The translations under genes were made by a program, and so were the position numbers. The notes beneath the pieces were generated by a model. That model ran no database searches. It had not been told where the DNA came from and was given only the letters and a program-made list of their open reading frames with translations. DNA of 64,000 bases from Candidatus Latescibacterota bacterium (GTDB taxonomy: Bacteria; Latescibacterota; UBA2968; GCA-2709665), in contig OZ240239.1 of the NCBI GenBank assembly GCA_965198095.1, positions 1,018,816 to 1,082,815 on the forward strand, read 5' to 3'. Below, one piece after another: positions 7,254 through 61,536 of the stretch (the first letter of the stretch is position 1; every line of letters begins with the position of its first letter).

Positions 7254-7937
7254 TCCACGGGCCTCCTTCGACACGGAAACAACGACGGGGCTGAAGCTCA
7301 AATCTATTTCAAGGCGGCAAAAGTGCAACCTCTTTCTTGCGCATCTGTCGGAGGCCCTCTTTCCGGTTTCCGCTTGACTTGGGGTTTGATATCGGCGAAA
7401 TTAACGCGAGTGAAGTCACGGGATCGTGCAGGAAGGAGACCGGAGGGATGATCGGAAGGCGCCGGGGATCTATGGAACTGTTCCGGCGCGGGTTTCTGAT
7501 GGCGGCCGGGTGGGTTGACAGGAGGCCTTGTGGCATCGGAGCTCGGCCGGCGCGCCGCGGCGCATTTGGAGTCTGCGATCCAGGGGGCGCGTAGCAGGTT
7601 CAACGGACACTCGGGCTCGGACGAAGAGCGCGTCGACCTGCCTGAAGAAACAGGGGCCGACTCCGTTCAGCTCCGTTTCAATCGCACGGGTCTCTCCGGA
7701 TCGGATTCCGTTGACAGTTCGACCCGAAGCATTGCCAACCTCTTCAGAGCCACCTCAGTTCGTAACCGGGGTGGCCGTGTTCTTGCATACGGGCAGAATG
7801 AAGAAACAAGCCGTCGGCTTGTAGGAAGGCATTCGCCCTGGCCGGTCACAGCAATCCTGAACAAGGATCCGGGCCTGGTTAAGAAATGCTTCGGGTGAAA
7901 TCGTAACGAATTTCCGGGGACAGAAAGCACAGCTCGA

Positions 7938-9206
7938 ATGAGATGGACGAAGGGTTGCGTCGTCGCCGTTCTCGTATGTGTGAGTTCGGCAGAGGGCTAT
8001 CGGATGCAGACCGATGGGATCGTCTGGATCGCTGAAGGCCCTTTGGCGGCCGATTTCGACCACGACGGACGGGTCGGGTTTGCCGATTTCATTCTGTTCG
8101 TGACCCGTTTTGATACGCAGGCCGGAGAGCCGGAGTTCAGGCAGCAGTTCGACCTTACGAGAGACGGCGTCGTGAATCTAAGCGACTTCCTCTCTTTCAC
8201 CGAGGCATTTGGCAGCAGTCGGGAGAGTCAGCCGTCCCGTCCTGATTACGAGGTCTATGTCGTCGATTTTGGCGGCGACTTTGTGGGTGTCCTGGATTTC
8301 AAGACCCACCTGTTTCAGGATTATCTCGCCTTCCGGAGTCCGTCCGGGATGCAAATTTCACGAGATCGAGCGTCGATCTATGTCGCGGAGGCCTTCGGTC
8401 TTTTCGTGATGAATGCGGAACGGGAGCTCCTGTATTCCGTTCCGTTGGAGTCCGCGGGGCGCGTGCTGCTGAGTCCGGACGAGAAGCTCGTCTATGTCGC
8501 GGAGGCGCTCACTTCTCAGGTGACGATTATCGACACGGAGCGGCGTGCGCCCGTAGATACGATCGGGGTCGGCGCCGCGCCCCAGCAATTGGGCCTGACG
8601 CCCGACGGCAGAAAGCTCTACGTGATGAATGCGCTCAGCTCGGACATCTCGGTGCTGGATCTGGACCGCCGGGAAGAAGCGACGAGAATCGATGTCGGCA
8701 CCCAGCCGGTGGACATGCGTATCACGCCCGACGGTCGGCGAGCCTACGTGCTGAACGGGGAACGCGCGCTCATCTCGGTGCTGGATCTGGTCTCTGACCG
8801 CGTTGTCGGCGCGATTCCGATCGAAGATACCGGGAACGGGGGGCTCGCGTTTTCTCCGGATGGAGAGACGCTCTACGTGAGCTCGGCCGGGAAGCTGCTC
8901 GCCCTGGATGTCGGACGGAATCTGATTTCGAGAAGCCTGGACCTGGGGGGGCAATCGAGCGCGATCGGCATCTCGCCCGACGGCGCCCGTGCCTACGTGG
9001 CATCGCTCGTTTTTCAGAGTGGCGGGAGTGGCGTCACGGTCGTCGACCTCGTGAACTGGAAGGTGATGGGACGCATGCTGGGGTTTGTCTTCCCGAGCCA
9101 GATTGAATTCCGTGCGATCGAGGCCGGGGAAGGCACCTCGCTGCCCGTCGGGAAGGGTGTTCCAGATCCCGATGCAAACCCTGAACTGTCCACCAAACCG
9201 GGGTAG
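7938..9206 (+). CDS. Secreted protein: N-terminal dockerin-like Ca-binding repeat pair plus YVTN-family beta-propeller repeats
   Basis: DFDHDGRVGFADFILFVTRF and DLTRDGVVNLSDFLSFTEAFG are dockerin/EF-hand-like. Repeated 40-residue units LYVMNALSSDISVLDL / AYVLNGERALISVLDL / LYVSSAGKLLALDV match the YVTN propeller repeat. Confidence 0.7.
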   Translation: MRWTKGCVVAVLVCVSSAEGYRMQTDGIVWIAEGPLAADFDHDGRVGFADFILFVTRFDTQAGEPEFRQQFDLTRDGVVNLSDFLSFTEAFGSSRESQPSRPDYEVYVVDFGGDFVGVLDFKTHLFQDYLAFRSPSGMQISRDRASIYVAEAFGLFVMNAERELLYSVPLESAGRVLLSPDEKLVYVAEALTSQVTIIDTERRAPVDTIGVGAAPQQLGLTPDGRKLYVMNALSSDISVLDLDRREEATRIDVGTQPVDMRITPDGRRAYVLNGERALISVLDLVSDRVVGAIPIEDTGNGGLAFSPDGETLYVSSAGKLLALDVGRNLISRSLDLGGQSSAIGISPDGARAYVASLVFQSGGSGVTVVDLVNWKVMGRMLGFVFPSQIEFRAIEAGEGTSLPVGKGVPDPDANPELSTKPG

Positions 9207-9539
9207 CTCCGCTGTCGGCCTGCGCGGCTGGCGGGGCCTATGTCTTCCAGGCCTTTGAGTTCGGTTGTCCACCGGGCCGGTTTCCGCGCTCCTCTCCCGG
9301 GAAGCAAGAGCCCACCCCGGCCTCGAAGTCGTCCGGTTCGTCTGCGGGCCGCAGAAGCGTGACGCCTCCCCGGTGGCTTCCCTCCTCAGTTGTCTCCCTT
9401 TTATATTATTTGATATCTTTGCCTGCGCGTAGGCCATCATCATATCGGGTGGCGTCCTATGGATGCAAAAAGCGTGAGTCTCGGCCTGGTATCGAGCGAA
9501 GGCCGGGTGAACTCCGCGAGGATTTGCGAGGAGGAACTC

Positions 9540-13667: not shown

Positions 13668-14118
13668 CCCGCGCCGTCGCCCATAGGCCGGGTCACGGTC
13701 TCATATATCCTCATCAATAGGGATGAGTTTGGAGATGACCCAGGGTTTGGGGGCTTCGCATTAGCCTTGATTCGAAAAAAACAAGCAATCCACAACTTCG
13801 TAAGGCCGTGAGAAATGTGGAATTACCTCAGCTAAAATGCACTGTTTTTCTGTTCACATCCCGTGAACTAAAGAATGGCCGAATGGTGACGTAAAGACGC
13901 CTTTGTTCTTCTGGACAAATCCCAGAGAACACCGCCGAGATATTTCGAATCAAGGTTAGTGTTTGGGCCACCCATTTTCGGTCTCATGGACGCCGGTGCC
14001 GGCTGATTCCGGGGCTATGTCTGCCGGAGGCGCTCCTCGCAGGGGTGGTCCTGGCTCCCCCCTATCCCGATTCAGTGCCCTGAGCGACGCGACGCACGCG
14101 CTGCGTTTGCCCGCAGTC

Positions 14119-14610: not shown

Positions 14611-15525
14611 TCAGGTCTTGAGGCTTCCCACCAGGTCCTTCAAGGGATTCACGCCCTGACGTTCGCAATAGTCCACGATGCCGTCGACGATGTCGAGCGC
14701 CGCCCACGGATTCAGGAACAGGGCGGTTCCGACCTGAACGGCCGAAGCGCCTACGATCAGGAACTCGATCGCATCTTCCGCGGTCGAGATTCCGCCCATC
14801 CCGATGACCGGCACGGAGACCTGGTCGGCGACCTTCCAGACTTGAGCGAGGGCAATCGGCTTGATGGCCGGTCCGGAGAGCCCCCCGGTCACGTTTTCGA
14901 GCACCGGTCGCCTGGACGCGATGTCCACGGCCATGCCGCGGAGGGTGTTGATCAACGCGATCCCGTCCGCGCCTCCCTCTTCCGCGGCCAGGGCGATTGC
15001 GGCGATATCGGTCACATTCGGCGTGAGTTTGACGATCACCGGGAGTCGCGAGACCGCTTTGACGGCCGCGGTGACATCGTGCGTCGCCTGTTCCCGGCAT
15101 CCAAAACGCATGCCGCCGTCCCTCATGTTCGGCGACGAGACATTGAGCTCGAGGGCGTCCACGCCGGGAAGGTCGTTCAATCGTCGGGCCATCTCGGCGA
15201 ATTCCGTGTTCGATGTGCCTGCGATGCTGACGACCCGGGCCGTATCCAACGCCTCCAGGGGCGGGAGTTTTTCCTCGATGAACCCCTCCAACCCCGGATT
15301 GGGCAGACCGATTGCGTTCAACATCCCGCCGGGTGTCTCCGCCGTCCTTACGGGTGGGTTTCCGGAACGTGGATGGTAGGTGATCGTCTTCGTGACGACG
15401 CCGCCGATTCGACCGAGGTCGAACAGGCCGGCATATTCAGCGGCGTGGCCGAACGTACCCGAGGCGACCATCACGGGGTTCCTGAGCGTGAGTCCGCCGC
15501 CTATGGGTGTGGACAGATCGATCAC
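14611..15525 (-). CDS. pyrD: Dihydroorotate dehydrogenase catalytic subunit (class 1B)
   Basis: VMVASGTFG, GGVVTKTIT, NAIGLPNPG and GMGGISTAEDAIEF. Antisense ORFs 14842-16098 and 14072-15100 are rejected. Confidence 0.9.
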   Translation of the reverse strand: MIDLSTPIGGGLTLRNPVMVASGTFGHAAEYAGLFDLGRIGGVVTKTITYHPRSGNPPVRTAETPGGMLNAIGLPNPGLEGFIEEKLPPLEALDTARVVSIAGTSNTEFAEMARRLNDLPGVDALELNVSSPNMRDGGMRFGCREQATHDVTAAVKAVSRLPVIVKLTPNVTDIAAIALAAEEGGADGIALINTLRGMAVDIASRRPVLENVTGGLSGPAIKPIALAQVWKVADQVSVPVIGMGGISTAEDAIEFLIVGASAVQVGTALFLNPWAALDIVDGIVDYCERQGVNPLKDLVGSLKT

Positions 15526-15529
15526 GGGG

Positions 15530-16312
15530 CTACCAGACCATCTTGTGCGCGTCCACGACCGGTCCCTCCAGACATACCCTGCGAAATCTCAGGTCGTTCC
15601 TCACGGTTTCGCGGTATTCGACGACACATCCCATACAGGCCCCGAACCCGCAGGGCATGTGGTTTTCGAGCGAAGCAAAACAGGGCAGGCCTTGATCGGC
15701 TGCGATCGCTGCCACGCGAGCCATCATCCCGTAGGGTCCGCACGTCAAGACGAGGGCCTTTCCCGGTCGAGCGAACGCAGGGATCAGGTCCGTCACCAGG
15801 CCGTGGTGACCCGCGCTGCCGTCCTCCGTGGCCAGGTGAAGGTCGAGATCGGGCGGAAGCGTTCGGACGGGATCGGGCAGGCGCGCCTTCGAGGCGGCGC
15901 CGAGGAGAAAGATCGCGGAGGATCGCAGCTGCGGGGCGTCCCACGCCAGGAAGGCCAGGGGGACCAGACCGACGCCCCCGGCCACCAGGAGAAGCCGGTC
16001 CGCGGTGGACGGTTCGTATGGGCATCCGAGCGGGCCGATCAGGTCCAGACTGTCCCCCGCGGAGGCTTCCGACATCTGGCGGGTGCCCGGCCCGATGACG
16101 TCGTAGAGGATGTCGATCCAACCCTCCGCGCGGTTGGCCCGCAAGGCGCTGAATGGCCTTCGAAGGTAGGGATGAAGACCCGGGCCGGTCCGGATATGTA
16201 CGAATTGCGCAAGACGACAGCTCCGAGCGATTCGCGGGGTGCGCAGACGCATCAGATAGATATTCTGCGCGACCGGCTCGTTTAAGAGAATCTCTCCATC
16301 TTCTTGAATCAT
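15530..16312 (-). CDS. pyrK: Dihydroorotate dehydrogenase electron-transfer subunit
   Basis: FAD/NAD-binding ferredoxin-reductase fold and a C-terminal Cys cluster MPCGFGACMGCVV. It overlaps the pyrD start by 4 nt. Confidence 0.85.
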   Translation of the reverse strand: MIQEDGEILLNEPVAQNIYLMRLRTPRIARSCRLAQFVHIRTGPGLHPYLRRPFSALRANRAEGWIDILYDVIGPGTRQMSEASAGDSLDLIGPLGCPYEPSTADRLLLVAGGVGLVPLAFLAWDAPQLRSSAIFLLGAASKARLPDPVRTLPPDLDLHLATEDGSAGHHGLVTDLIPAFARPGKALVLTCGPYGMMARVAAIAADQGLPCFASLENHMPCGFGACMGCVVEYRETVRNDLRFRRVCLEGPVVDAHKMVW

Positions 16313-16466
16313 GTCGACGGACTTGAAATGAAAGGCTCACGCTTGCGTCTTACCCTGCAACACCGCCGGAGGAGACCCGATTTCGGTGACGTCCGCGCCA
16401 TCTCTCCGTTCAACCTTCGACCGATCGGCCTGCGGGGCACTGCGGGGTGCGGGGACGCGGGGTCGT

Positions 16467-18176
16467 TCAATCAGCGCTTCGTTCGGCCGCGTCTGAGACC
16501 CCGGCACTGTCGCCGGCGGGCGCTTCCACGTCCAGAAACCCGCCCTTCAATTTTTCGCGTGCCACTTCGGAAAACTCGGACATCGGATATCGATCGATCA
16601 ATCGCTGATATTGGGCTCTGGCCAGATCGGGCGTGTTACGCTCGTTCTCATAGAACCACGCCAGAGCGTAGATGGCCTTCGCCGCATAGAGGGTATTGGG
16701 GAAGTCGGCTGCGATTTGTCTGAAAAGAGCCATCGCCTCTTCCAGCGTCGCCCCGTCCTGCCGCAGCGCCTCTGCCCGATGGAAACGTGCCTGGGCCTCG
16801 GCCTCCTGCGTCCCTTCCTCCAGAATTCGCTTCCGGGCCGAAACCGCGAACGGGCTGGCCGGGTAGCGTTCGACCAGCTGGCCAAAGTAACGACGAGCCG
16901 CGGTGTCGTCTTTCAGCGTGTCGGCGTAGACGAGACCCAGTGCGTACAGGGCCTTGGGAGCGGCGTCGGAGGTGTCGGCCGCCTTCAGAACCCGATCGTA
17001 GACCGCCACGGCGGAGTCGGGTTCCGAGAGCCCGAAGAGGTAGAGCTCGGCCAAATTGAAGGAGGCTTCAATCCCCTTCTTGCCCTTCTTTTGCGAAGCC
17101 TTTTCATATCGTTTCAGATCGGAGAGCAGTTTCTCGCGCATCCGGACCAGCCCGGCGGCCTCCGAACCTGACTTCTCCCTTTTCGCCATCTGAAAGTGCT
17201 CTTTTGCCGAGGCGTGATCCTTCCGGTGCTGAAGCGCGATCAGCCCCATCTCGTAGTATGCGAAAGCGCTGTGTTCCGTGTGGGGCAGGTTCTTCGTGAT
17301 CTGCGCGTATATCCGTTCTGCGGTTTCGAACGCTTCCATGGACGTGTGGACATTTGCCTGCCTTAGACGAACGTCTCCTTCGTAAGACCGAAAGCGTTTG
17401 ATCTTCAGGATCTTCCCGTAGACCTCCAGGGCCTCCTGGAATCTGTGCTGCAACTCCAACGTCCGCCCGAGCCGAAGCCGGGTGAGGTAGTCCGTGCCGA
17501 TATCCGGTCCGGACTTCAAGACCTGCTCGTAGGCTGCCGCTGCCTCGTCGTAACGTTGCTGGTTGAAAGCGGCGTTTCCGATGCCGCTCCAGATTTTTGC
17601 CTTCAGCTTTTTCTCCTTCTCATATTCCGAGAGCAGCTGCTTGTAGGCATCGATCGCGGCCTGGTAGTTCTCCTGGTCGGATTCCAGCTCTGCCAGGGAG
17701 ATGCGTGCCTCCTTGGTAAAATGCCCACCCTCGACATTTCCGATCTCAACAAAGATGTCACGTGCGCCGTCGATTCGGCCCTCGGCGCGGAGGGCCAGGC
17801 CGCGCCAGTAATAGGCCTCTTCGACCAGGTCGCTTTCCGGAAAGTTCTCAGCGAGCTCCTGGAACTTCAACACGGCTTCGTCGTGAATCTCCCGCCAGTA
17901 AAAGGCCTTGCCGATGAGCAGCAGCGCATCGTCTACCCATTTGCTGTCGGGATGCCTGTCCAGCACGATGGAGGCCTTGCGGATGGCGTTCATGTAAAGC
18001 TTCTTGTATGCCTGAGACCTCCGGCTCCTGTCGGAGCGGGTTTCCGTTTCACGACGTTTCCGATCGGCGTCATCGAACTGTTTGCGCGCGTTGTAGAACG
18101 TGTTGAAGTAGACGCATCCGGAAAGGAAGGTCAGCGCGGCCAAAGGCCATAGTCTTCGAAGGGCGTTCATCCGCAC
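16467..18176 (-). CDS. Tetratricopeptide-repeat lipoprotein
   Basis: Lipoprotein signal MRMNALRRLWPLAALTFLSGC, followed by many TPR-like helical repeats. Confidence 0.7.
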   Translation of the reverse strand: MRMNALRRLWPLAALTFLSGCVYFNTFYNARKQFDDADRKRRETETRSDRSRRSQAYKKLYMNAIRKASIVLDRHPDSKWVDDALLLIGKAFYWREIHDEAVLKFQELAENFPESDLVEEAYYWRGLALRAEGRIDGARDIFVEIGNVEGGHFTKEARISLAELESDQENYQAAIDAYKQLLSEYEKEKKLKAKIWSGIGNAAFNQQRYDEAAAAYEQVLKSGPDIGTDYLTRLRLGRTLELQHRFQEALEVYGKILKIKRFRSYEGDVRLRQANVHTSMEAFETAERIYAQITKNLPHTEHSAFAYYEMGLIALQHRKDHASAKEHFQMAKREKSGSEAAGLVRMREKLLSDLKRYEKASQKKGKKGIEASFNLAELYLFGLSEPDSAVAVYDRVLKAADTSDAAPKALYALGLVYADTLKDDTAARRYFGQLVERYPASPFAVSARKRILEEGTQEAEAQARFHRAEALRQDGATLEEAMALFRQIAADFPNTLYAAKAIYALAWFYENERNTPDLARAQYQRLIDRYPMSEFSEVAREKLKGGFLDVEAPAGDSAGVSDAAERSAD

Positions 18177-29000: not shown

Positions 29001-29022
29001 CCTGAATAATTCATAACCTGAA

Positions 29023-29730
29023 TCATTCATAAAAAAGGTTAGGAAAGTCACTCGTACTCACCTTTTCTTGCCGCCCAAGAAAAGGTGACAAAAGAAGGGC
29101 GCCTGCCTGCCGCGCCCAACGCGGCGCAGGCAGGCCCCTCAAACGCCGGGGAGGCTCGGGCCGTGGCGACTCAGCCTCACTGGAAACGACCGGCGCCGCG
29201 AAAGGAATGAACTCCTCCCCCCGCCTGATGCCCACTGCGGGACCCGCCCCCACACCGCGAATTTCCATTCGCCCCCACATCCGCCCCCGCACCTGACCCC
29301 GTCCCACAGAGGGCCCCCTAACCCCTGGGGAGGAGAAACGCGGAAGCAGTTGGAGAGCCACAACGCCACGGCCGCGATGACATCTGGCCCGAATCACTCC
29401 TGAAATCTGCAAAATCTGCGTAAATACCGGGCCTTCCCGCGCCCTTCGATACACCCGAGAGACCGTTCGCCTATGATGAGCTGAGCATCTCGCTGATTGG
29501 GCACTCAGGGACACGGGGGCTTCTCTACTTGCCGCAACTCCTGCGACTCGCTCTTCGAAACCGGCCCCGTTCGTGTCGAGTGCCCGCCTGGGGGCAGGAG
29601 GGTGTCAACGATATAGTTAGGAAAGTCACTCATACTCACCTTTTCTTTGCTCGCTAAGGAGAGCACGATACGGCTGACACGATACACCCCTGTCATACGC
29701 GGAAATGATGTCAACGATTTACCGCTCCCG
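29023..29730. repeat. Mosaic intergenic repeat, copy A (BIME-like; sub-motifs X, Y, T plus a 35-bp direct repeat)
   Basis: Segment X (29130-29440) and segment Y (29441-29625) recur at 61141-61440 and 60990-61140. Y also recurs at 55424-55600. The tail T (29661-29730) recurs inverted at 60770-60836. ggttaggaaagtcactc.tactcaccttttctt occurs at both 29036 and 29626. Confidence 0.7.
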
Positions 29731-41689: not shown

Positions 41690-42500
41690 GGTGTAGGAGC
41701 CAACTCCGTTGGCGAAGCAAAAAGATTGCGGATTTGTTTTGCACTCATCCAATGGCCACTCATAGGGTCGGTAGAGGCGCACACCGCGATCAGATGGTTC
41801 GCCGTCGGGAGCCTGTCCTGAGCAAGCGTCAGCGAGTCGAAGGGACGGCTCCTACCGGATTATTGGGCCTATTGGATTCACCGATGTCATAACGTCCCAT
41901 ATCCGGTAGGAGCCAACTCCTGTTGGCGAAGCAAAAGATGGCGACTTGCTTTGCGCCGATCCAATAAGCCAACTCCGTTGGCGAAGCAAAAGATGGCGAC
42001 TTGCTTTGCGCCGATCCAATGGCCACCCATAGGGTCGGTAGAGGCGTACACCGCGATCAGATGGTTCGCCGTCGGGAGCCTGTCCTGAGCAAGCGTCAGC
42101 GAGTCGAAGGGACGGCTCCTACCGGATTATTGGGCCCAATGGATTCACCGATGTCATAACGTCCCATATCCGGTAGGAGCCAACTCCTGTTGGCGAAGCA
42201 AAAGATGGCGACTTGCTTTGCGCCGATCCAATAAGCCAACTCCGTTGGCGAAGCCGAAGATGGCGATTTGTTTTGCACCAGTCCAATGGCCACTCATGGT
42301 CGGTAGAGGCGTACACCGCGATCAGATGGTTCGCCGTCGGGAGCCTGTCCTGAGCAAGCGTCAGCGAGTCGAAGGGACGGCTCCTACCGGATTGTTGGGC
42401 CTAATGGATTCACCGATGTCATAACGTCCCATATCCGGTAGGAGCCAACTCCTGTTGGCGAAGCAATAGATGGCGATTTGTTTTGCGCCGATCCGATGGC
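41690..42500. repeat. Composite tandem repeat block 1 (three units of S ~55 bp plus L ~155 bp)
   Basis: The S unit is gagccaactcc(t)gttggcgaagc.aaagatggcga.ttg.tttgc.c.gatccaat. The L unit is ggccac.catagggtcggtagaggcg.acaccgcgatcagatggttcgccgtcgggagcctgtcctgagcaagcgtcagcgagtcgaagggacggctcctaccggattattgggcc.a.tggattcaccgatgtcataacgtcccatatccggtag. The block fills the whole interval between the paralog-3 stop and the paralog-2 start. Confidence 0.85.
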
Positions 42501-42502
42501 CA

Positions 42503-43627
42503 TCACTGCCACGCCTCCCTGAACAGCCGAACCGTGTTGCCGTGGGCGATCTTCGCGACGTCCTCCTCGCCATATCCCCGTTGACGCAGGATGTCCAGGA
42601 ACTTCTGCAGGTCGGCGATGGTGTCCATGTCGGTGGGCGCGTACTCTCGCCCGAACCCGCCGTCCAGGTCGGACCCGATGGCCACGTGATCGGCGTTTCC
42701 CGCGAGCTGGCAGATGTGATCGACGTGGTCCACGACGGCGTTCATGGGTCGCGTGGAAGCGGGCGGAACGCGGTCCGAGTCGATCCACGCCGGGTTGAGA
42801 AACCTTTCGACGAAGACGACGCCGATCACGCCGCCACGCTCGCAGAGTGTCTTGATCACGTCGTCACTCAAGAGGCGCTGAATCGGAACGAGGGCGCGGC
42901 AGTTGCAGTGGCTGGCGTGGATCGGTCCGTCCCAGCGGTCCAGGATCTGACGGAGGGCCAAGTCGGCGGCGTGGGTGACGTCCAGAACGATTCCGGCGGC
43001 GCGCAGCGCGTCCATCAGCGGAAATGCGGGGGGATAGAGCCCTCCGACGGTGCGCGTTCCGTGGCCGTAGGTGTTGGCCCCGTAGTGGGTGAGGGAGACG
43101 GCGCGGAGCCCGGCTTCCCACCAGTCTTCCACATTTTCCAGACCGAGGATCGGGTCGGCGCTCTCCATCGTGAGGATGAGGCCGATGGGCGTCTCAGGCG
43201 TCGGATGCGCCCACTCCGCGACAGAGGCATCCAGGTCCGCCACCGACTTGATGAACCGGATCTGCCCGTCTCGTTCCAGGGCGCGGTAGTAGGCCAAGTG
43301 GCCCATGGCCCGCGCGTATGCCGCGGCCTGCGTGCGGTCCGTATTGCCCGACGTCGGACCCGGCTCCTGCACCCGCGCCATGATCGTCCCGAGCGCGATG
43401 CCGACGTGTCCCTTCCGCATGTCGGGAAACGAGACCGTGGCGATGCCTTTGCCGACGTCGGCCCACGGATCGTGGCGGACCAGGACGGCTTCCGGGTCGG
43501 CGGTGGGCCCGAGGAGGAAACCGTCTTCCCGCTCGCGAAGGGTATCGACCGACTGGGTGAGATCGCGGCGGTGAAAGAGGGCGTTGTGCGCCAGGTCGAG
43601 GTGGCCGTCTATGATGAGGGTAGACAT
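42503..43627 (-). CDS. Membrane dipeptidase M19 - paralog 3
   Basis: IIDGHLDLAHN...ASHCNCRAL...GSDLDGGFG. More diverged from paralogs 1 and 2, and close to paralog 4. Confidence 0.85.
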   Translation of the reverse strand: MSTLIIDGHLDLAHNALFHRRDLTQSVDTLREREDGFLLGPTADPEAVLVRHDPWADVGKGIATVSFPDMRKGHVGIALGTIMARVQEPGPTSGNTDRTQAAAYARAMGHLAYYRALERDGQIRFIKSVADLDASVAEWAHPTPETPIGLILTMESADPILGLENVEDWWEAGLRAVSLTHYGANTYGHGTRTVGGLYPPAFPLMDALRAAGIVLDVTHAADLALRQILDRWDGPIHASHCNCRALVPIQRLLSDDVIKTLCERGGVIGVVFVERFLNPAWIDSDRVPPASTRPMNAVVDHVDHICQLAGNADHVAIGSDLDGGFGREYAPTDMDTIADLQKFLDILRQRGYGEEDVAKIAHGNTVRLFREAWQ

Positions 43628-43844
43628 AAAGCCGCCGGGAACGGGTACCGGGGACCCAAAACACGGGTACCGGGTACAGAAAGGCCGTTGTTCGTCGCTT
43701 GTCGTTCCGTCGTTCGCAGAAGTTGGATCACGAGACTACACGAAGCGCACGAAAAAATTGACAATGAATGTCGAACCGCGGAATACCGAATGTGGTGACA
43801 GCTGGACCACAGGCCACAGATTCCTTGTATCACAACCCCAACTC

Positions 43845-44875
43845 ACGCCCCATATCCGGTAGGAGCCAACTCCGTTGGCGAAGCCGAAGATGGCCGTATA
43901 TTATGCCGCCTAGCCAATGGCCAACTCCTGTTGGCGAAGCAAGAGATAGCGATTTGTTTTGCGCCAGTCCAATGGCCACTCATAGGGTCAGTAGAGGCGT
44001 ACACCGCGATCAGATGGTTCGCCGTCGGGAGCCTGTCCTGAGCAAGCGTCAGCGAGTCGAAGGGACGGCTCCTACCGGATTATTGGGCCCAATGGATTCA
44101 CCGATGTCATAACGTCCCATATCCGGTAGGAGCCAACTCCGTTGGCGAAGCCGAAGATGGCGATTTGTTTTGCACTCATCCAATGGCCAACTCCGTTGGC
44201 GAAGCCGAAGATGGCCGTATATTATGCCGCCTAGCCAATGGCCACTCATAGGGTCAGCAGAGGCGCACACCGCGATCAGATGGTTCGCCGTCGGGAGCCT
44301 GTCCTGAGCAAGCGTCAGCGAGTCGAAGGGACGGCTCCTACCGGATTGTTGGGCCTAATGGATTCACCGATGTCATAACGTCCCAAATCCGGTAGGAGCC
44401 AACTCCGTTGGCGAAGCCGAAGATGGCCGTATATTATGCCGCCTAGCCAATGGCCAACTCCTGTTGGCGAAGCAAGAGATAGCGATTTGTTTTGCGCCAG
44501 TCCAATGGCCACTCATAGGGTCGGTAGAGGCGCACACCGCGATCAGATGGTTCGCCGTCGGGAGCCTGTCCTGAGCAAGCGTCAGCGAGTCGAAGGGACG
44601 GCTCCTACCGGATTATTGGGCCTAATGGATTCACCGATGTCATAACGTCCCAAATCCGGTAGGAGCCAACTCCGTTGGCGAAGCCGAAGATAGCGATTTG
44701 TTTTGCACTCATCCAATGGCCACTCATAGGGTCGATAGAGGCGTACACCGCGATCAGATGGTTCGCCGTCGGGAGCCTGTCCTGAGCAAGCGTCAGCGAG
44801 TCGAAGGGACGGCTCATACCGGATTGTTGGGCCTATTGGATTCACCGATGCCATCGTGATGCGAGGCAGAAAACC
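43845..44875. repeat. Composite tandem repeat block 2 (four L units interleaved with two S variants)
   Basis: Same S and L families as block 1. One S variant carries the AT-rich insert ccgtatattatgccgcctagcc. The block runs from ~220 bp upstream of paralog 3 to the stop codon of paralog 4. Confidence 0.85.
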
Positions 44876-44884
44876 TCGGATGAA

Positions 44885-46006
44885 TCACTGCCACGCATTC
44901 CTGAACAGGCGCAGCGTGTTGCCGTGGGCGATCTTGGCCACGTCTTCCTCACCGTATCCACGCCGTCTCAGGACGTCCAGGAAGTTCTGCAGGTCGGCGA
45001 TGGTGTCCAGGTCGCAGGGGGACTTCTCGCGTCCGAACCCGCCGTCCAGATCGGACCCGATGGCGACGTGATCGGCATTTCCGGTGAGCTGACAGATGTG
45101 GTCGACGTGCTCGACGATGGCGCTCATCGGTCGGGTGAGGCCGGGCGCGGGTCCGAACATGTGCACATTCGGGTTGACGAACGTTTCGGCGAAGACCATG
45201 CCGATCACGGCGTCGCGCTCGCAGAGCGCCTTGATCATTTCATCCGTCAACAGCCGCTGGACCGGGACGAGGGCGCGGCAGTTGCAGTGGCTGGCGTGGA
45301 CCGGTCCGTCCCAGTATTCCAGCAGCTGCCAGAAGACGAGGTCGGAGGCGTGGGTCACGTCCAGCAGGACGCCCGCGTCGCGCAGGGCGTCCAGGAGCGG
45401 GTATGCGGGGGTATAGAGTCCGCCTTCGGTGCCCGTGCCGTGGCCGTAGGTGTTGGCCCCGAAATGGGTGAGCGAGACGGATCGGAGCCCGGCTTTCCAC
45501 CAGTCTTCCACATTTTCCGGCCCGAGGATCGGGTCGGCCCCTTCCATGGTGAGGATCAGGCCGACCGGCGTCTCAGGCGTCGGATGCTCCCACTCGGCAA
45601 CAGAGGCATCGAGATCTTCCGCGGATTTGATGAACCGGACTTCGCCCTCCCGCTCCAGGGCCTGGTAGTAGGCCAGATGGGAAATCCCCTGCGCGTGGGC
45701 GACGGCCTGTGTTCGCACGGAGTTGTGGCTGTCCGGACCGGGCAGCTGGATGCGGGACATGATCGTAATCAGCCCGATGCCGACGTGCCCCCTTCGCATG
45801 TCGGGGAGAGAGACCGTGGGAACGCCGTGCTCCTTGTCTTTCCAAGCGTCTTCCTTGACGAGGACCGCTTCCGGATCGGCGGAGGGGCCGCGCAGGAGGA
45901 CGTCTTCCCGTTCGCGGAGGACCCTTGCAGGCTGCCTCTGGTCGCGGCGATTGAAGAGGCCGTTGAAAGCCAGGTCGAGGTGGCCGTCTATGATGAGGGT
46001 AGACAT
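44885..46006 (-). CDS. Membrane dipeptidase M19 - paralog 4
   Basis: IIDGHLDLAFN...ASHCNCRAL...GSDLDGGFG. The long antisense ORFs 39361-46279 (plus strand) are rejected. Confidence 0.85.
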   Translation of the reverse strand: MSTLIIDGHLDLAFNGLFNRRDQRQPARVLREREDVLLRGPSADPEAVLVKEDAWKDKEHGVPTVSLPDMRRGHVGIGLITIMSRIQLPGPDSHNSVRTQAVAHAQGISHLAYYQALEREGEVRFIKSAEDLDASVAEWEHPTPETPVGLILTMEGADPILGPENVEDWWKAGLRSVSLTHFGANTYGHGTGTEGGLYTPAYPLLDALRDAGVLLDVTHASDLVFWQLLEYWDGPVHASHCNCRALVPVQRLLTDEMIKALCERDAVIGMVFAETFVNPNVHMFGPAPGLTRPMSAIVEHVDHICQLTGNADHVAIGSDLDGGFGREKSPCDLDTIADLQNFLDVLRRRGYGEEDVAKIAHGNTLRLFRNAWQ

Positions 46007-46124
46007 AGAGCCGTTGGCAGCGGGTACCGGGGCACCAGAACACGGGTACCGGGTACCGAAAGGCCGTTGTCCGTCGCTTGTCGTTCCGTCATTCGCAAAA
46101 GTTGCATCACAAGCCTATCTCACA

Positions 46125-46435
46125 CCCCGCATCCGGTAGGAGCCAACTCCTGTTGGCGAAGCAATAGGTGGCGACGTGGGGTGCGCCGATCCAATGGCCG
46201 TCTCCCTGTTGGCGAAGCAATAGGTGGCGACGTGGGGTGCGCCGATCCAATGGCCGTCTCCCTGTTGGCGAAGCAATAGGTGGCGACGTGGGGTGCGCCG
46301 ATCCAATGGCCGTCTCCCGACGGCGACGCAATAGGTGGCGACGTGGGGTGCGCCGATCCAATGGCCGTCTCCCGACGGCGACGCAAAAGATGGCGATTTG
46401 TTTTGCACCGATCCGATGGCGCCGGTTTTGGTGGT
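46125..46435. repeat. Tandem repeat block 3 (about five ~58-bp S-like units)
   Basis: ctgttggcgaagcaataggtggcgacgtggggtgcgccgatccaatggccgtctcc repeats three times, followed by two diverged copies. It starts with the same atccggtaggagccaactcc junction as blocks 1 and 2. Confidence 0.8.
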
Positions 46436-47180: not shown

Positions 47181-47957
47181 ATGTTTATGAATTTCGATCT
47201 TGAGGCTTCAGAATTCCAACGCGCCTGGCTCCAGCGTGCTTTGGGAGCGTTTCACGAAGATGGATGGTTCACTGACATCCTGTATCGCGCCAAAGGTGGC
47301 AAGGAGGCCAATGTTTACTGCTGCAGGGCGAGCCCGGAGACAGGTTACGAATTCGTCGCCGCGAAGGTATACCGGCACCGTAGACTTCGATCCATGAAAA
47401 ATTACGCCGTGTACCGGGAGGGCCGGCATGTCACAAGCGATAGGCGTGAACTCCGGGCCTTGAAGAAGAAGACAAGGATAGGCAAAGCTGTTGAAGATGG
47501 CGCCTGGATAAGACACGAGTACGATACGATGACGCGACTTTACGATATGGGGGCAAGTGTGCCCGAACCTCTGGCAAGAGGCAGCACTGCGCTTTTGATG
47601 GAATATATAGGAGACGAACACGGAGCGGCGCCCCTTTTTCACGAGGTTGCCCTCAAAGAAGACCAGGCCCAGGACTTTTTCGACCGCTTGATGTACAACG
47701 TTGAGATCTTTCTGGCCCGCGACCTGGTACACGGAGACCTGTCAGCTTATAATGTCCTCTATTGGGATGACGATTTCAGGATCATTGACTTCCCTCAGGC
47801 AGTCGATCCGGTATTGAATCCCAACGCCCTCTCCCTGTTGGCACGTGATGTCGAGCGGCTATGCCAGTATTTCTCTCGGTACGGCGTGGAGGCCAACTAC
47901 GTTGATCTTGCAGCAGATCTGTGGGAGAGATTTAGTCGAAGGGAGCTCGCCGTGTGA
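47181..47957 (+). CDS. RIO-type serine protein kinase
   Basis: GKEANVY (the ATP-binding loop), the catalytic loop LVHGDLSAYNVLY and the metal-binding IIDFPQAVD are all RIO1-family signatures. An RBS AAGAGGGA precedes the ATG at 47181. Confidence 0.7.
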   Translation: MFMNFDLEASEFQRAWLQRALGAFHEDGWFTDILYRAKGGKEANVYCCRASPETGYEFVAAKVYRHRRLRSMKNYAVYREGRHVTSDRRELRALKKKTRIGKAVEDGAWIRHEYDTMTRLYDMGASVPEPLARGSTALLMEYIGDEHGAAPLFHEVALKEDQAQDFFDRLMYNVEIFLARDLVHGDLSAYNVLYWDDDFRIIDFPQAVDPVLNPNALSLLARDVERLCQYFSRYGVEANYVDLAADLWERFSRRELAV

Positions 47958-49536: not shown

Positions 49537-50439
49537 CTAGGTGCGACCAGGCGTATCGGGTGTGAGCTCCCGTGCCTTGCGGAGCCTCAGCGTTTCGAGG
49601 ACCACCACACAGACGATGATCAGACCGCCTATGATCTCCCCCTGGGTCGGAACCTCTGAAAGGAACACCAGGGCAAACAGGATTCCGTAGATCACCTCGA
49701 CAACGATGGTCAATCCCACGGTCTTCCCCGAAAGGTGTCGTTGGCTGTCGACCAGCAACATTCTTCCCAGTCCAGTGGCGAACAGTCCCAGGAGCAGAAG
49801 GTAGACGATATCGCGCGGGCTTGGCAGGTGAGCGAAATTCCCGCCGAGGATCATGAACGGGAGAAGAATCAGACCGACCAGGCCGATCTCGTAGGCTGAG
49901 ATGTCCCAGCTGTTGTATCTGCCGACGAGGAATTTCTTCCGCGTCAGAATGATCAATGGGATCGTCACGCCCGCCGAGATTCCGAGAATGACACCTTGAA
50001 ATTTCGTATTGGAGAGGCTGACTTCCGGGGTGATGAAAAAGATCCCGATGAGCACCAGGATTGCGCTGCCGACATCCGGAAGTCTGATTCTGCCCCCGAA
50101 GTAGAAGCGCTCCAGAAAAACCATCAGGATCGGATATGTGTAGATCGTGATGACGGCGATGGCAACGGTGGAGACCTGGACCGACTTGAAGAAAAGGATC
50201 GACTGGAGCGATATGAAGACCGCAATGGCCAGAAAGGTAAGCAGGTCTTTCCTGCTTCTTATCGTCGAGTGTCCTTCCAGGCGTCTTCCGACAAGAAACA
50301 AGAGCAGTGTCGCGGCGGCGGCCCGCCAGAACGTGATGGGCAGCGGACCCGGAGAGAGCGCTTTGCCGAGCGGCCCGACGAAGCCGAACATCAACGTGGC
50401 CACATTGAGTTGCACAAGCGCTCGGGTCCGGCCTGTCAT
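49537..50439 (-). CDS. DMT-superfamily (EamA-like) transporter
   Basis: Ten predicted TM helices arranged as two EamA repeats. Confidence 0.75.
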   Translation of the reverse strand: MTGRTRALVQLNVATLMFGFVGPLGKALSPGPLPITFWRAAAATLLLFLVGRRLEGHSTIRSRKDLLTFLAIAVFISLQSILFFKSVQVSTVAIAVITIYTYPILMVFLERFYFGGRIRLPDVGSAILVLIGIFFITPEVSLSNTKFQGVILGISAGVTIPLIILTRKKFLVGRYNSWDISAYEIGLVGLILLPFMILGGNFAHLPSPRDIVYLLLLGLFATGLGRMLLVDSQRHLSGKTVGLTIVVEVIYGILFALVFLSEVPTQGEIIGGLIIVCVVVLETLRLRKARELTPDTPGRT

Positions 50440-50523
50440 CGGTCAGTGAAACCACTTATAGGTGTTTGCCGAACGCGGCGCGGGCGACGCAGCGTGGGTC
50501 AGCTGTTCGCAGACGCGCAAGTT

Positions 50524-50811
50524 TCACACCGCCCTGCGAAGTTTGCCCACTCCGGACTTGGGCTGAGTCCTGGCGAGATCGTGCAGGGACTGGAGGTTGA
50601 GCCAGAACTCGGGACTGGTGTCGAGGGCCTGTGCGAAAAGCCACGCGGTCTCCGGCGTTACGCCGCGTTTCCCACGAGCGATCTCATTGATGCGTTGCGT
50701 GGGCACACCGAGGTGCCTGGCGAGGGCCACCTGCGTGACGCCGAGCGGATCCAGAAACTCCCTCTGAAGTATCTCGCCAGGATGTGCGGGAATTCGATTT
50801 TCGGGCAGCAT
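50524..50811 (-). CDS. higA: HigA-family (XRE HTH) antitoxin, orphan
   Basis: IPAHPGEILQREFLDPLGVTQVALARHLGVPTQRINEIARGKRGVTPETAWLFAQAL is a typical HigA HTH. No HigB/RelE-like ORF sits upstream. Confidence 0.65.
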   Translation of the reverse strand: MLPENRIPAHPGEILQREFLDPLGVTQVALARHLGVPTQRINEIARGKRGVTPETAWLFAQALDTSPEFWLNLQSLHDLARTQPKSGVGKLRRAV

Positions 50812-51085
50812 AGTGCGTTCTCCAGAAAGGTCGATGGTCATCAGTGAAGCGAACATCGTGGGCCACACCGGAGGACCACCGAAATACGATTCTCCATTGA
50901 TCGTTGACTCGGATGCCGTGGAACCCACGTAAATCTCCCCGCAGTGCCTGCAGGCGATTGCCGGGAGGCGATCTTAGGCTGAATCATTCATGAATCGTCA
51001 CGGTTAGCTGCTTGATTCGCGAGTCAATCAACTCCACCCCGGCACAGTGGCTTGTCGAGCGGTTGAGGAAGGGTGTGTGAAGGTG

Positions 51086-51107
51086 GGGCAGACATTCCTG
51101 TCTGCCC
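51086..51107. repeat. REP-like palindrome downstream of the RAYT gene
   Basis: GGGCAGACA-ttcc-TGTCTGCCC (9-bp perfect stem), extendable to GTGAAGG..CCTTCAC. Confidence 0.6.
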
Positions 51108-51108
51108 T

Positions 51109-51799
51109 TCACATTGTCCTTTTCCCGGAATCCGGAATGCAGACAGAAGAAAGGCGTGCGCCGCCTTTATAGAGCCAATACGCGTCGTTGCGCAGTCCGT
51201 CTTTTGTGGGGTTTTCCGTGATGTAGCGGATGAAGCGCCAATACTGCTTTTCGCTACGCACGATGTGATCATAGGATTCGTCAAGCCAGAACGTCCCGGT
51301 GACGCCTGTGAGTTTGTTGATTTCTCGGGCAAAGGCGCCTTTTATGCCCTGCAGAATCCGCGAAAGGTTGTGGCCTCCCAGGGGTTCCATGAGGAGGTGA
51401 ACATGCGTGGGCATGATGACGGCTGCGTGAAGCCGGTGTCTTTCGCCGTCGAAACGCAAAAGACAGTTCTTGACCGCTTCACGGGCATCTATGTGCGCCA
51501 GGGCACGGGAACCAGAGCCGGCATTGAGCCAGGATTCGATCTTTTCATCGAAACGTCGGTTGTACTCTTTCCACTCGGCGTCTGTCCACGGTTCGGGGTG
51601 GCGCTTGTGCCACAGCTTACGCGCTTCCTGGAAGGTCCCGGGGGATCGCGTCAGCGAGGCGAAAGGTGATCCAATAGATCGCACCGTCTTTATTCCAGTG
51701 GGGGAGACGGCGGCGAGTCGTAGCGTGCCCGGACACAGGATGCAAAGGTTCCGGTTTGAGGGTGATGAGCAGACAGGAATGTCTGCTCCACATTTCCAA
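51109..51799 (-). mobile_element. REP-associated tyrosine transposase (RAYT, IS200/IS605-like TnpA_REP), interrupted by a frameshift
   Basis: The N-fragment (51617-51799) reads RRRLPHWNKDGAIYWITFRLADAIP. The C-fragment (51109-51684) has the HuH motif HVHLLMEP and the catalytic Tyr region YWRFIRYITENP. The two frames overlap at the run ccccgggacc. Confidence 0.65.
51767..51788. repeat. REP-like palindrome at the 5' end of the RAYT gene, inverted relative to the downstream copy
   Basis: GAGCAGACA-ggaa-TGTCTGCTC. The loop is the reverse complement of the ttcc loop of the copy at 51086-51107. Confidence 0.6.
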
Positions 51800-52083
51800 C
51801 CTTTGGTTCGACGTATCGCTTGCTAACCGACACGCATATAGATTTCGAGCATTACGTCCTCCGTCTTATACGCCGTGTCATCAACTGTTATACCCATAGG
51901 CGCTTCTCGTGCTCTTCGCGATGATAACGACGACCTCGCGTCCACGGTTTTGACGCTTTTGTGCAACAAAGGACCCGTTAGGCCGGTGCCACCCAACAGA
52001 AGGACTCGCATTTCCGCTGATGGTCCCTTCCAATTCGCATCGAGAAGGGTCGGCTAACCCCAGCTTCCGTCTTTTCTTCTATG

Positions 52084-52430
52084 GATGAAAACAGCGTTCC
52101 CGGCCGGGTCCGAAATCATCGCGACGTGGCAGGCAGAGAGCTCGTTTGGCCCCCACTCGACGTTCACGCCCTTCGCCTTCAACTCGGCGAGTGCATGCTC
52201 GAAGTCATCCACGGCGAGAGCGACCGCGCTTCCACCTTTGCCGCCGGAAGGGGCGCCCCGTCATAGATTCCGAACAGAACGAGCGTTGTGGGAGGAATGT
52301 CGAACTCAGCCCAGTTCCAATCAGGTTTGTAAAGGTTGAGCCTCAGCCCAAGCGTATCCTGATAGAACTCGACGGCCATTTCCAAGTTGTCGACGTAGCT
52401 GACAAGAAAATCGGCGCCGCGGACGTTCAT
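52084..52430 (-). pseudogene. VOC/glyoxalase-family protein with a frameshift in a G/C homopolymer run
   Basis: The N-part (52179-52430) reads ...VDNLEMAVEFYQDTLGLRL...LVLFGIYDGAP. The C-part, in another frame, reads SGGKGGSAVALAVDDFEHALAELKAKGVNVEWGPNELSACHVAMISDPAGNAVFIH. The shift is at ggggcgcccc (~52255). Confidence 0.5.
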
Positions 52431-55297: not shown

Positions 55298-55423
55298 CTC
55301 ATTGAGGCGTTGCATTGATTCGACTTCCTGCCTTTCCATCCGTATCGTGCTCTCGTTGGTCGCCCCGTTCGTGTCGACTGCCCGGGCCCAGAGGCGAGGG
55401 GTGTATCGAGAGACGCGGTTCAC

Positions 55424-55600
55424 CTGACAGGCTTTCCCGCGCCCTTCGATACACCCGCGAGACCATTGGGTTATGATCGGCTGAACATCTCGCTGATTGG
55501 GCACTCAGGGACGCGGGGTCTTTGCACTTGTCGCAACTCCTGCGACTCTCTCTTCGAACCCGGACGCCTTCGTGACCGCCGGCGAGGCAGAGCCGGACTC
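55424..55600. repeat. Mosaic repeat copy C (segment Y only, right arm degenerate)
   Basis: gcgcccttcgatacacccgcgagacc...gctgaacatctcgctgattgggcactcagggacgcggggtctttgcacttgtcgcaactcctgcgactctctcttcgaa matches Y of copies A and B. Confidence 0.65.
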
Positions 55601-60769: not shown

Positions 60770-61440
60770 GAGCGGTAAATCGTTGACATCATTTCCGCGT
60801 ATGACAGGGGCGTATCGTGTCAACCGTATCGTGCGCTCCCTGGTCACTCCGGTGTGGCACCGGCAGCTTGCTGCCGGTGGGAAATGACGAGCGAATTTTG
60901 TCATACTTGGAGCAATGAATTTTTCACGGGCGGGCGAGCCGCCCGTGGCACACGCGATTAAGACCTTGTGTATTGTCGATTCGGTGATGATCAGCTGAGC
61001 ATCTCGCTCATCGGGCACTCAGGGACACGGGGCTTCTCCACTTGTCGCAATTCCTGCGACTCTCACTTCTCACTTCAAACCCGGCCCCGTTCGTGTCGAG
61101 TGCCCGAGCCTGGGGGTAGGGTGTCAACGATATCGTCAGGCAGGCCCCTCAAACGCCGGGGGGGCTCGGGCCGTGGCGACTCAGCCTCACTGGAAAGTAT
61201 TGGCGCCGCGAAAGGAATGAACTCCTCCCCCCGCCTTATGCCCGCTGCGGGACCCGCCCCCACGCCGCGAATTTCCATTCGCCCCCACATCCGCCCCCGC
61301 ACCTGACCCCGTCCCACAGAGGGCCCGGACCCCTGGGGAGAAGAAACGCCAAAGCAGCTAGGGAGCCGAAACGCCACGGCCGCGATGACATCTGGCCCGA
61401 ATCACTCGTGAAATCTGAACAATCTGCGTAAATACTGGGC
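60770..61440. repeat. Mosaic repeat copy B (T inverted, then Y, then X)
   Basis: 60770-60836 is the reverse complement of 29661-29730. 60990-61140 matches Y. 61141-61440 matches X, including ggccgtggcgactcagcctcactggaaa...gaatttccattcgcccccacatccgcccccgcacctgaccccgtcccacagagggcc. Confidence 0.7.
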
Positions 61441-61536
61441 TTTCCAGTTTTTTGCACCAGGACAAAGTTTTTTTACTCAAATTGGATCACTGATTGTTCT
61501 TCATAAAATGATGGAAATTTTCAGCAAATATTCAGG

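Follow-up and report, generated by a model that had tools for sequence, protein, structure and literature searches.

A split RAYT-like transposase gene between two inverted REP hairpins, and the recurrence of the whole unit at several sites

Gene and hairpins at the locus

The DNA analysed here is a 64,000-nt stretch of contig OZ240239.1. We will use the term "window" for this whole stretch, and all coordinates are relative to its first letter. Between 50976 and 51822 the window carries a unit in which a gene for a Y1 HUH tyrosine transposase, divided between two reading frames, lies between two inverted copies of a 22-nt hairpin. The locus is very probably a decayed copy of a REPtron, in which the gene for a tyrosine transposase associated with repetitive extragenic palindromes (REPs), a RAYT or TnpA_REP, is placed between two inverted REP hairpins. 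Such a RAYT cassette is of a known kind and is dead here, while the recurrence of the whole unit at several sites departs from the classic picture; this behaviour, resembling that of an insertion sequence (IS), is the only aspect of the locus above the ordinary. The main features are the following.

50976..51822, minus strand: REP-RAYT-REP unit (~845 bp) with recurrent ends, each uncertain by ~8 nt
51083..51107, plus strand: REP 3' of the gene; foot GTGG 51083-51086, stem 51086-51094, loop TTCC 51095-51098, stem 51099-51107
51109..51636, minus strand: C-terminal gene body in the +1 frame; HVH 51397-51405, candidate catalytic Tyr 51223-51225, stop 51109-51111
51125..51138, minus strand: 7-nt tandem duplication (CCGGAAT twice on the plus strand), changing the last residues to IPDSGKRTM
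51617..51736, minus strand: N-terminal gene fragment; GTG start 51736, beta-strand 1 (IYWITFR), out-of-frame tail, TAA 51617-51619
51635..51636, minus strand: junction of an 11-nt deletion (aaacgccgcac in L001, between AC microhomologies), from the DNA alignment with L001
51767..51791, minus strand: REP 5' of the gene; hairpin 51767-51788 (loop GGAA on the plus strand), foot GTGG, which is CCAC 51788-51791 on the plus strand

A count of GCAGACA-N4-TGTCTGC in the 64-kb window gives exactly two matches, one at 51088-51105 with the loop TTCC and the other at 51769-51786 with the loop GGAA, where none is expected by chance (100 shuffles). A search of the window allowing two mismatches adds only one match, at 22328, which is at chance level. 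The full 22-mers, GGGCAGACAttccTGTCTGCCC (51086-51107) and GAGCAGACAggaaTGTCTGCTC (51767-51788), differ by a single compensatory change, G:C to A:T, at stem position 2. Both fold into a perfect 9-bp stem with short and bulged outer extensions, and as single-stranded DNA both reach z = -2.8 to -4.9 against shuffled sequences. Together with their flanks the hairpins make up a 33-nt inverted repeat that is 88% complementary, with a spacing of 649 nt. A single nucleotide separates the left hairpin from the stop codon of the gene (51109-51111), and at the other end the GTG (51736) aligned with the starts of the intact orthologues stands 31 nt downstream of the right hairpin. On the gene-distal side of each hairpin stands GTGG, at 51083-51086 on the plus strand and at 51791-51788 on the minus strand. 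The identification of the two hairpins as inverted REPs, with an asymmetric GTGG foot facing away from the gene, is supported. The initial annotation of the stretch had described two 22-bp hairpins bracketing a transposase gene, one immediately 3' of it and the other at its 5' end, in mutually inverted orientation, and each of these points has been borne out by the positions, loops and feet given above; the two hairpins are the only such copies in the 64 kb.

In a promoter and terminator scan no promoter-like site was found at the locus and neither REP qualifies as an intrinsic terminator, as there is no T run. Rfam gave no match to 50400-52400, and the hairpin 16-mer has no occurrence in the literature searched.

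The gene is on the minus strand and consists of two overlapping open reading frames (ORFs), 51617-51799 (60 aa) and 51109-51684 (191 aa). The former carries RRLPHW...IYWITFRLAD and the latter the HUH motif and the Tyr. The translation of the N-terminal fragment, VSGHATTRRRLPHWNKDGAIYWITFRLADAIPRDLPGSA followed by a stop codon, aligns with the N-termini of the intact orthologues, which are 208-209 aa long and read IPRDKRRAFQEARKLW. In a tblastn search with the protein repaired across the break, 51636-51112 is covered at 99% identity. The hidden Markov model search for a Y1 transposase that the initial annotation had proposed as a check has been run: the repaired protein passes Pfam Y1_Tnp narrowly (24.5 bits, cut-off 23), and the top NCBIfam family is the RAYT model REP_Tyr_transpos (NF047646; 69.8 bits, E = 2e-19). 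The model NF033573 (transpos_IS200) is not passed (18.1 bits, cut-off 55).

The best sequence match in the PDB is 4ER8, the E. coli TnpA_REP bound to a REP (E = 7e-4). The HVH of the window protein pairs with HMH of 4ER8, and the Tyr of RFIRYITENP pairs with residue 115 of 4er8_A, which serves as the catalytic Tyr (Y115) of TnpA_REP (PMC8266576). Neither the HUH motif nor the Tyr varies among the homologues in two alignments, one of 16 and one of 51 sequences. The intact orthologue P0003 is 85% identical, and its AlphaFold model (mean predicted confidence, pLDDT, 86.7) retrieves 4ER8 as the best match in a PDB fold search, followed by the ISDra2, Sulfolobus, IS200 and IS608 TnpAs. The model contains a ~55-residue two-helix insertion after beta-strand 1 which is absent from the solved RAYT. 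Several homologues have been labelled by JGI as 'REP element-mobilizing transposase RayT'. We call the repaired protein RAYT-like because REP_Tyr_transpos scores 69.8 bits against 18.1 for IS200 and because 4ER8 is the best match both by sequence and, for P0003, by fold. The assignment of the encoded protein as a putative RAYT/TnpA_REP-like Y1 HUH transposase is supported by these matches, of which the RAYT profile is the best.

Hairpins and whole units in other genomes

The hairpin is widespread elsewhere. In a scan covering one genome per species, the 18-mer GCAGACAGGAATGTCTGC was found in at least 120 stretches of 8 kb, the record titles of which name Planctomycetota, Verrucomicrobiota, Latescibacterota, Hydrogenedentota, Lentisphaerae, Acidobacteriota, Chloroflexota, Gemmatimonadota and others. 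Some phylum labels of the metagenome-assembled genomes (MAGs) among the carriers may be binning errors. Among the matches listed, a RAYT homologue is encoded in 5 of 120 stretches and none in the other 115, doublets occur in 50 of 120 with a median spacing of 40 nt, and the tags point outward, as they do around the window gene, in 43 of 51 neighbouring pairs. Latescibacterota chromosomes (L116, L054, L022 and L080) also contain free copies in which the extended foot is the same.

In 146 free copies, once they have been turned into a common orientation by means of the loop, conservation is restricted to one of the two flanks. On the TTCC-loop strand the stem is preceded by G, T, G (0.66) or A (0.31), and G, with a conservation of 0.66-0.97 per foot position. 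In 149 RAYT-adjacent hairpins the foot starts with G (148/149) and T (146/149), its last two positions are mainly purines (91 G vs 58 A at the third), and AAG often stands before the tag. Stem pair 8, which was outside the selection criterion, is paired in 99%, with C:G in 85 and G:C in 56; stem pairs 3 and 7 alternate between G:C and A:T, their paired state having been a selection criterion. A GT[AG]G foot defines canonical REPs (PMC6006769, PMC3733652), and GTGG variants of it have been reported in Opitutus terrae (PMC3733652).

The same association holds near the gene. In a survey of 55 metagenome loci encoding homologues, CAG[AG]CA-type hairpins flank both sides of nearly all homologues with at least 45% identity (~50), often as doublets or tandem arrays. 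Homologues below ~45% identity have different hairpins. Inverted flanking hairpins have also been found in L001, L202-L205 and L160. The RAYT clade, with its RRLPHW N-terminus and helical insertion, and the hairpin GTGG-GGCAGACA-TTCC occur in genomes labelled with the names of many little-studied phyla, with an identical 18-mer core, which offers a handle for annotating REPs and inverted REP doublets (REPINs) in MAGs. The hairpins also yield spurious ORFs in MAGs, with GQTGMSAP- and GQTFLSA-type peptides.

Some further observations concern this family. Among the matches listed, GCAGACAGGAATGTCTGC with a GTRG foot is found in MAGs named for more than 10 phyla (L002-L121); REPs are usually described as lineage-specific, and the cross-phylum identity of GCAGACAGGAATGTCTGC is therefore notable. 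The Planctomycetaceae MAG MFD01112.bin.1.69 accounts for at least nine stretches, mostly with doublets ~40 nt apart. RAYT homologues of ~36% identity in L026 (4122-4784), L084 and L112 are flanked by the same CAGACA-TTCC-TGTCTG core. Both flanking hairpins of L084 and of L112 have the same orientation, and L026 has a REP doublet inside the gene-aligned region.

The unit as a whole recurs as well. BLAST blocks of the window against L001, L202 and L203 end at 50979 and 51821/51822, and the flanks and neighbouring genes are unrelated. Window 50979-51821/2 aligns as a single block at 87% (L001), 93% (L202) and 94% (L203) identity. A unit with the same ends has been found in at least six genomic contexts, namely the window, L001, L202, L203, a mini-copy in L209 and a fragment in L093, a Latescibacterota chromosome, where a 3' fragment ends at the terminus of the unit. 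The contig of the window has at least two copies, P0001 and P0124, the latter presumably on the same contig, and the sister genome has two, L202 and L204.

Two of the related sequences are altered in structure. The L209 mini-copy (19-442) is a shortened unit that keeps both termini, both REPs and the 11-nt deletion and lacks 411 nt (window 51158-51568). It resembles a miniature inverted-repeat transposable element (MITE) derivative and lies ~5 kb from the polymorphic site described below. In a 5.5-Mb relative (L205 8948-11300, also L206), two intact RAYT genes of 208 and 209 aa stand in tandem and are followed by an array with a period of 146 nt, each repeat consisting of the last ~75 nt of the gene and a GGAA hairpin; the conserved tail of the unit is present only after the last repeat.

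In three related assemblies (L209, L210 and L212) the site is without the unit and is occupied by an unrelated 2-kb module. This module encodes a 219-aa ORF with weak AAA/AbiEii-like matches, a 93-aa ORF and an 86-aa HTH_3 protein. In L209 it lies at 7358-9387, which is equivalent to window 50976-51815, and the homology of L209 and L210 with the window resumes at 50975 and ~51816, the ends of the unit. The edges of the module have 7-8 nt in common with the ends of the unit (AAGCGAAC vs AAGCGATAC, and TGATTCA at the other end). At neither end of the unit was a conserved short target seen, and the flanks outside AAGCGATAC differ in every independent context. No target duplication was seen at the ends either; AAGCGAAC is present at the unoccupied L209 site.

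The 5' ends of some copies are less uniform. L202, L203 and the L209 mini-copy have 80-149 nt of additional upstream sequence in common, of which 35 nt in L202 match a repeat at window 29099-29134. We considered whether the 76-149 nt upstream of these three copies is a part of the element and rejected this, as the window, L001 and L205 have a shorter common 5' end. Judged from these alignments, the upstream extension is more likely carried flank.

A probable decayed REPtron and its alternatives

The window unit shares many properties with the REPtrons of E. coli, Stenotrophomonas and Marinomonas (groups 2 and 3). It encodes a protein of the Y1 HUH fold with the Tyr at the position of Y115 of 4ER8 (PMC3333891, PMC3479197, PMC8266576, PMC5581495), the gene lies between inverted REPs with a 5' foot of the GT[AG]G type, and the hairpin is found in free-standing and inverted-doublet (REPIN) copies in many genomes. 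The REP has the form 5'-GTGG, a stem of 8-9 bp (GGCAGACA), a TTCC loop and the returning stem (TGTCTGCC), with the feet outward. The geometry in the window is that of the REPIN-like doublet of the same hairpin elsewhere, the gene replacing the spacer. On the other hand, the similarity to known REPtron proteins is weak (E = 7e-4 for 4ER8 and a score below the NCBIfam cut-off), the ~55-residue two-helix insertion is absent from them, the foot in the window is GTGG instead of GTAG, a genome holds two or more closely related copies, and the gene is a pseudogene. According to earlier descriptions, RAYTs are present in about one copy per replicon with few duplicates (PMC5581495), and REPtrons do not move by transposition of the whole unit (PMC6006769). 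The unit studied here differs: at least two copies per genome, recurrent ends and a polymorphic site have been found, and the complete unit is repeated at different places with its ends fixed.

The unit can also be compared with the GTAG-tagged REP superfamily, the members of which have a stem of 5-13 bp, a loop of 2-20 nt and an unpaired GTAG-like end tag and often form inverted dimers (PMC3733652). The hairpin of this study has a stem of 8-9 bp, a loop of 4 nt, the tag GTRG, and dimers in 50 of the 120 stretches among the matches listed. By description, not by consensus sequence, it resembles members such as GTAG-20 of Opitutus terrae and the repeats of Rhodopirellula baltica (PMC3733652) in its unpaired 5' tetranucleotide tag, perfect 8-9-bp stem, 4-nt loop, frequent inverted dimers, association with a tyrosine transposase and occurrence in phyla of the PVC (Planctomycetes-Verrucomicrobia-Chlamydiae) type. 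Unlike the hosts of these PVC-type families, the host here is an FCB-group bacterium, probably Latescibacterota-like; the named sequences closest to GlnS, at 73-74% identity, come from Latescibacterota chromosomes and from MAGs labelled Gemmatimonadota.

Several observations weigh against the identification as a decayed REPtron. The score for REP_Tyr_transpos is under the curated cut-off (69.8 vs 80) and covers only residues 98-183, the C-terminal half of the protein. No free-standing REP turned up in the 64-kb window or in L202 and L203, two other loci that add ~40 kb of closely related sequence, so that REP dispersal in the genome of the window is unproven, the flanking pair being the only one in 64 kb. 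For the same reason, the phrase "classic REP-RAYT-REP" in the initial annotation is right as to the arrangement and overstated as to "classic". A clean empty site was sought and not found, the alternative allele being a replacement by the 2-kb module. Because L202, L203 and the L209 mini-copy have extra upstream sequence in common, they count only in part as separate evidence on the 5' end. The enzyme activity is presumed for this clade by analogy only. Finally, the ratio of nonsynonymous to synonymous substitution rates (dN/dS) of 0.4-0.6 among the deletion-bearing copies is not clearly neutral and may reflect some remaining constraint or gene conversion from intact copies.

The best surviving alternative is that the unit is a (formerly) autonomous IS200/IS605 insertion sequence, with the hairpins as its left- and right-end recognition structures, unrelated to REP dispersal. 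The unit has in common with IS608 and ISDra2 the enzyme superfamily and fold, subterminal hairpins and multiple copies with defined ends, and it has neither classical terminal inverted repeats nor an obvious target duplication. This alternative would account for the fixed ends in several contexts, the two or more copies per genome, the deletion derivative that retains both ends and the presence/absence polymorphism. The missing free REP in ~100 kb of the lineage also speaks for it, as does the fact that Pfam Y1_Tnp is the sole curated profile passing its cut-off. However, the ends of IS608 and ISDra2 are formed by like-oriented hairpins on one strand (PMC8266576), which are imperfect, whereas the hairpins of the window are perfect palindromes that are mutually inverted (REP and iREP), with GTGG feet on opposite strands. 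The protein scores far below the cut-off of the IS200 model (18.1 vs 55) and reaches 69.8 with the RAYT model, 4ER8 is its best fold match, and there is no TnpB partner. The foot GT[AG]G is typical of REPs, no conserved short target was seen beside the ends, and elsewhere the hairpin is overwhelmingly free-standing or in doublets, occurring in large numbers without the gene (115 of 120 stretches without a RAYT among the matches listed). An ordinary IS200/IS605 element is therefore improbable. The Class 3 TnpA_Y1 of Planctomycetes and Acidobacteria, intermediate between ISs and REPtrons (PMC6006769), is similar in having several closely related copies and flanking, potentially abundant hairpins. 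That class is set apart by its description, which gives hairpins of weak structure with a CnGA foot and proteins with a Y----Q signature, compared with GT[AG]G and perfect stems here.

For the REPtron, a mechanism can be outlined from the TnpA_REP of E. coli, Stenotrophomonas and Marinomonas (PMC8266576, PMC3479197). By analogy, the intact enzyme would bind the folded REP on single-stranded DNA, with the GT[AG]G foot serving as a guide. The metal bound by the HUH motif and the Tyr would then cut and rejoin the DNA beside the hairpin through a link between the Tyr and a 5'-phosphate, and this cutting and rejoining would spread REPs and REPINs. In Marinomonas, a change of GTAG to GTGG shifted the cutting to CC (PMC8266576), and a CC cutting site is guessed here because the Marinomonas GTGG mutant cut at CC. 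By its sequence, the copy in the window cannot yield the enzyme, as the 11-nt deletion parts beta-strand 1 from the rest of the fold and the 7-nt duplication rewrites the C-terminus. The unit, with its dead allele, has presumably been copied as a block to new sites in trans, by an intact paralogue that would act on the outward-facing REPs. The fixed 3' end and the variable 5' extensions would fit a flexible choice of the upstream cleavage site.

A more specific proposal is that the complete unit is itself a transposable element in this lineage. It would in effect be a REPIN whose spacer is the transposase gene; the block would be copied from a constant 3' end, the 5' read-in being variable (0, ~80 or ~149 nt of carried flank), and both the frameshifted, non-autonomous allele and the 411-nt deletion derivative would still be propagated in trans. 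We regard this proposal as tentative and rather doubtful in its full form. If it is true, the unit would stand, as a living intermediate form, between IS200-like insertion sequences and the domesticated RAYTs that occur as single copies. The fixed ends, multiple copies and polymorphism of the whole unit bear on the relation of RAYTs to their IS200-like ancestors.

The frame break and the outer parts of the unit

The initial annotation had placed the split of the reading frame in a run of Cs and Gs and had left the choice between a dead gene and a sequencing indel. The break lies at plus-strand 51635-51636, within that run. Compared with the intact L001, the window, L202 and L203 are all without the same 11 alignment columns. 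The junction recurs at the syntenic locus of the sister assembly (L204), which is 97.8% identical over 5.7 kb and carries the 191-aa ORF as well, and at the syntenic locus of a third assembly (L211). It is also present at other loci, in L202, L203 and the shortened L209 copy. The lesion is judged to be old because it is common to the syntenic locus in two other assemblies and to copies at three other loci.

The second lesion, the 7-nt duplication, adds columns to the window row only in the DNA alignment with L001, L202 and L203, and the protein P0128 of the sister assembly (L204) has the altered C-terminus of the window. The original TGA stop has been lost in the window, L202 and L203. L202 has an additional +1 A, plus substitutions at otherwise invariant residues. 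By the method of Nei and Gojobori, dN/dS is 0.39-0.61 among the deletion-bearing copies (172 codons) and 0.22-0.27 in comparisons with the intact L001. Constraint on the deletion-bearing copies is relaxed by this measure, and the counts are too small to call them neutral. Taken by its sequence, the gene is a pseudogene.

One protein could in principle be made from the two frames by programmed +1 frameshifting or transcriptional slippage at CCC-CGG-G, or the two fragments could complement each other. Several copies retain the deletion allele and have kept the long C-terminal ORF open, dN/dS is 0.39-0.61 and thus below 1, and on inspection of the sequence a +1 re-pairing is conceivable at CCC and then CGG. 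However, all intact relatives have four additional residues (of the DKRR type) and need no shift, and in the model the first helix that follows beta-strand 1 loses its start to the deletion. Also, the run is altered to C4G4 in L203, L202 has the second frameshift and the changed invariant residues, and no known frameshift signal is present. Such a rescue of the gene is very improbable. That the gene is truly intact and the break a sequencing or assembly indel can practically be dismissed: it adjoins a C5/G3 run, a typical error site, but the gap to the intact orthologues is 11 nt and not 1, and the gene is taken as dead because the identical deletion is common to independent assemblies (L204 and L211, syntenic) and to copies elsewhere (L202, L203 and the L209 mini-copy). 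Of the two possibilities in the initial annotation, the dead gene has thus stood and the indel has not. A homopolymer slip in the C5/G3 run was likewise rejected, as 11 nt have been lost rather than one. In the annotation of the genome, the 60-aa and 191-aa ORFs belong merged as a RAYT pseudogene with its REPs, and it would be wrong to "correct" the frameshift as if it were an assembly error.

Outside the two REPs, the unit has two further segments.

50976..51082, minus strand: conserved ~107-nt tail beyond the 3' REP, with the palindrome ATTCATGAAT and a degenerate ATTCGCGAAT
51792..51822, minus strand: ~31-nt leader outside the 5' REP, AAGCGATACGTCGAACCAAAGGTTGGAAAT in gene orientation, common to all copies in different contexts

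Conservation of the tail extends over six copies, the more distant L093 and L205 among them. The six copies display sequence conservation only, with no covariation of pairs in the tail and no Rfam match. The tail contains two 10-nt palindromes of the form ATTC-NN-GAAT, of which ATTCATGAAT is intact; ATTCGCGAAT is intact in other copies and mutated to ACTCGCGAAT in the window. A GGTGG in the tail could pair with CCACC after the REP. The first 6-8 nt of the leader (AAGCGA..) are also present at the unoccupied L209 site.

Directly outside the 5' end of the unit, window 51822-51855 contains GCTAACCGACACG, an inverted near-copy of the tail-internal GCTAACCGTGACG (the reverse complement of 50996-51008). 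It was not seen beside the copies examined in L001, L202, L203 and L209, and it may be a remnant of the tail of another unit. The neighbours of the unit are a HTH_3 (HigA-like) gene, an EamA transporter gene, a glyoxalase-fold gene and a gene for a 282-aa protein of no recognised family.

Other repeats have been noticed in the window and its relatives. A different family of ~400 nt is present at window 29018-29647, 61144-61529, 55413-55563 and 13762-13968, with 85-92% identity between copies, and also in L204, L209 and L210. One of its copies in L209 ends in AATTATTCAGACTAG, which resembles the 3' end of the RAYT unit, AATGATTCAGGTTAG. Window 41700-46300 gives many staggered matches of 70-93% identity to L204 18025-19734, which indicates that this region may be internally repetitive, with units of ~270 nt. 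L204 also has a ~1.8-kb insertion at 15431-17240 encoding a DUF772 (IS5-type) transposase, where window 47194-47204 is uninterrupted; by this alignment, the insertion is a strain-level IS polymorphism.

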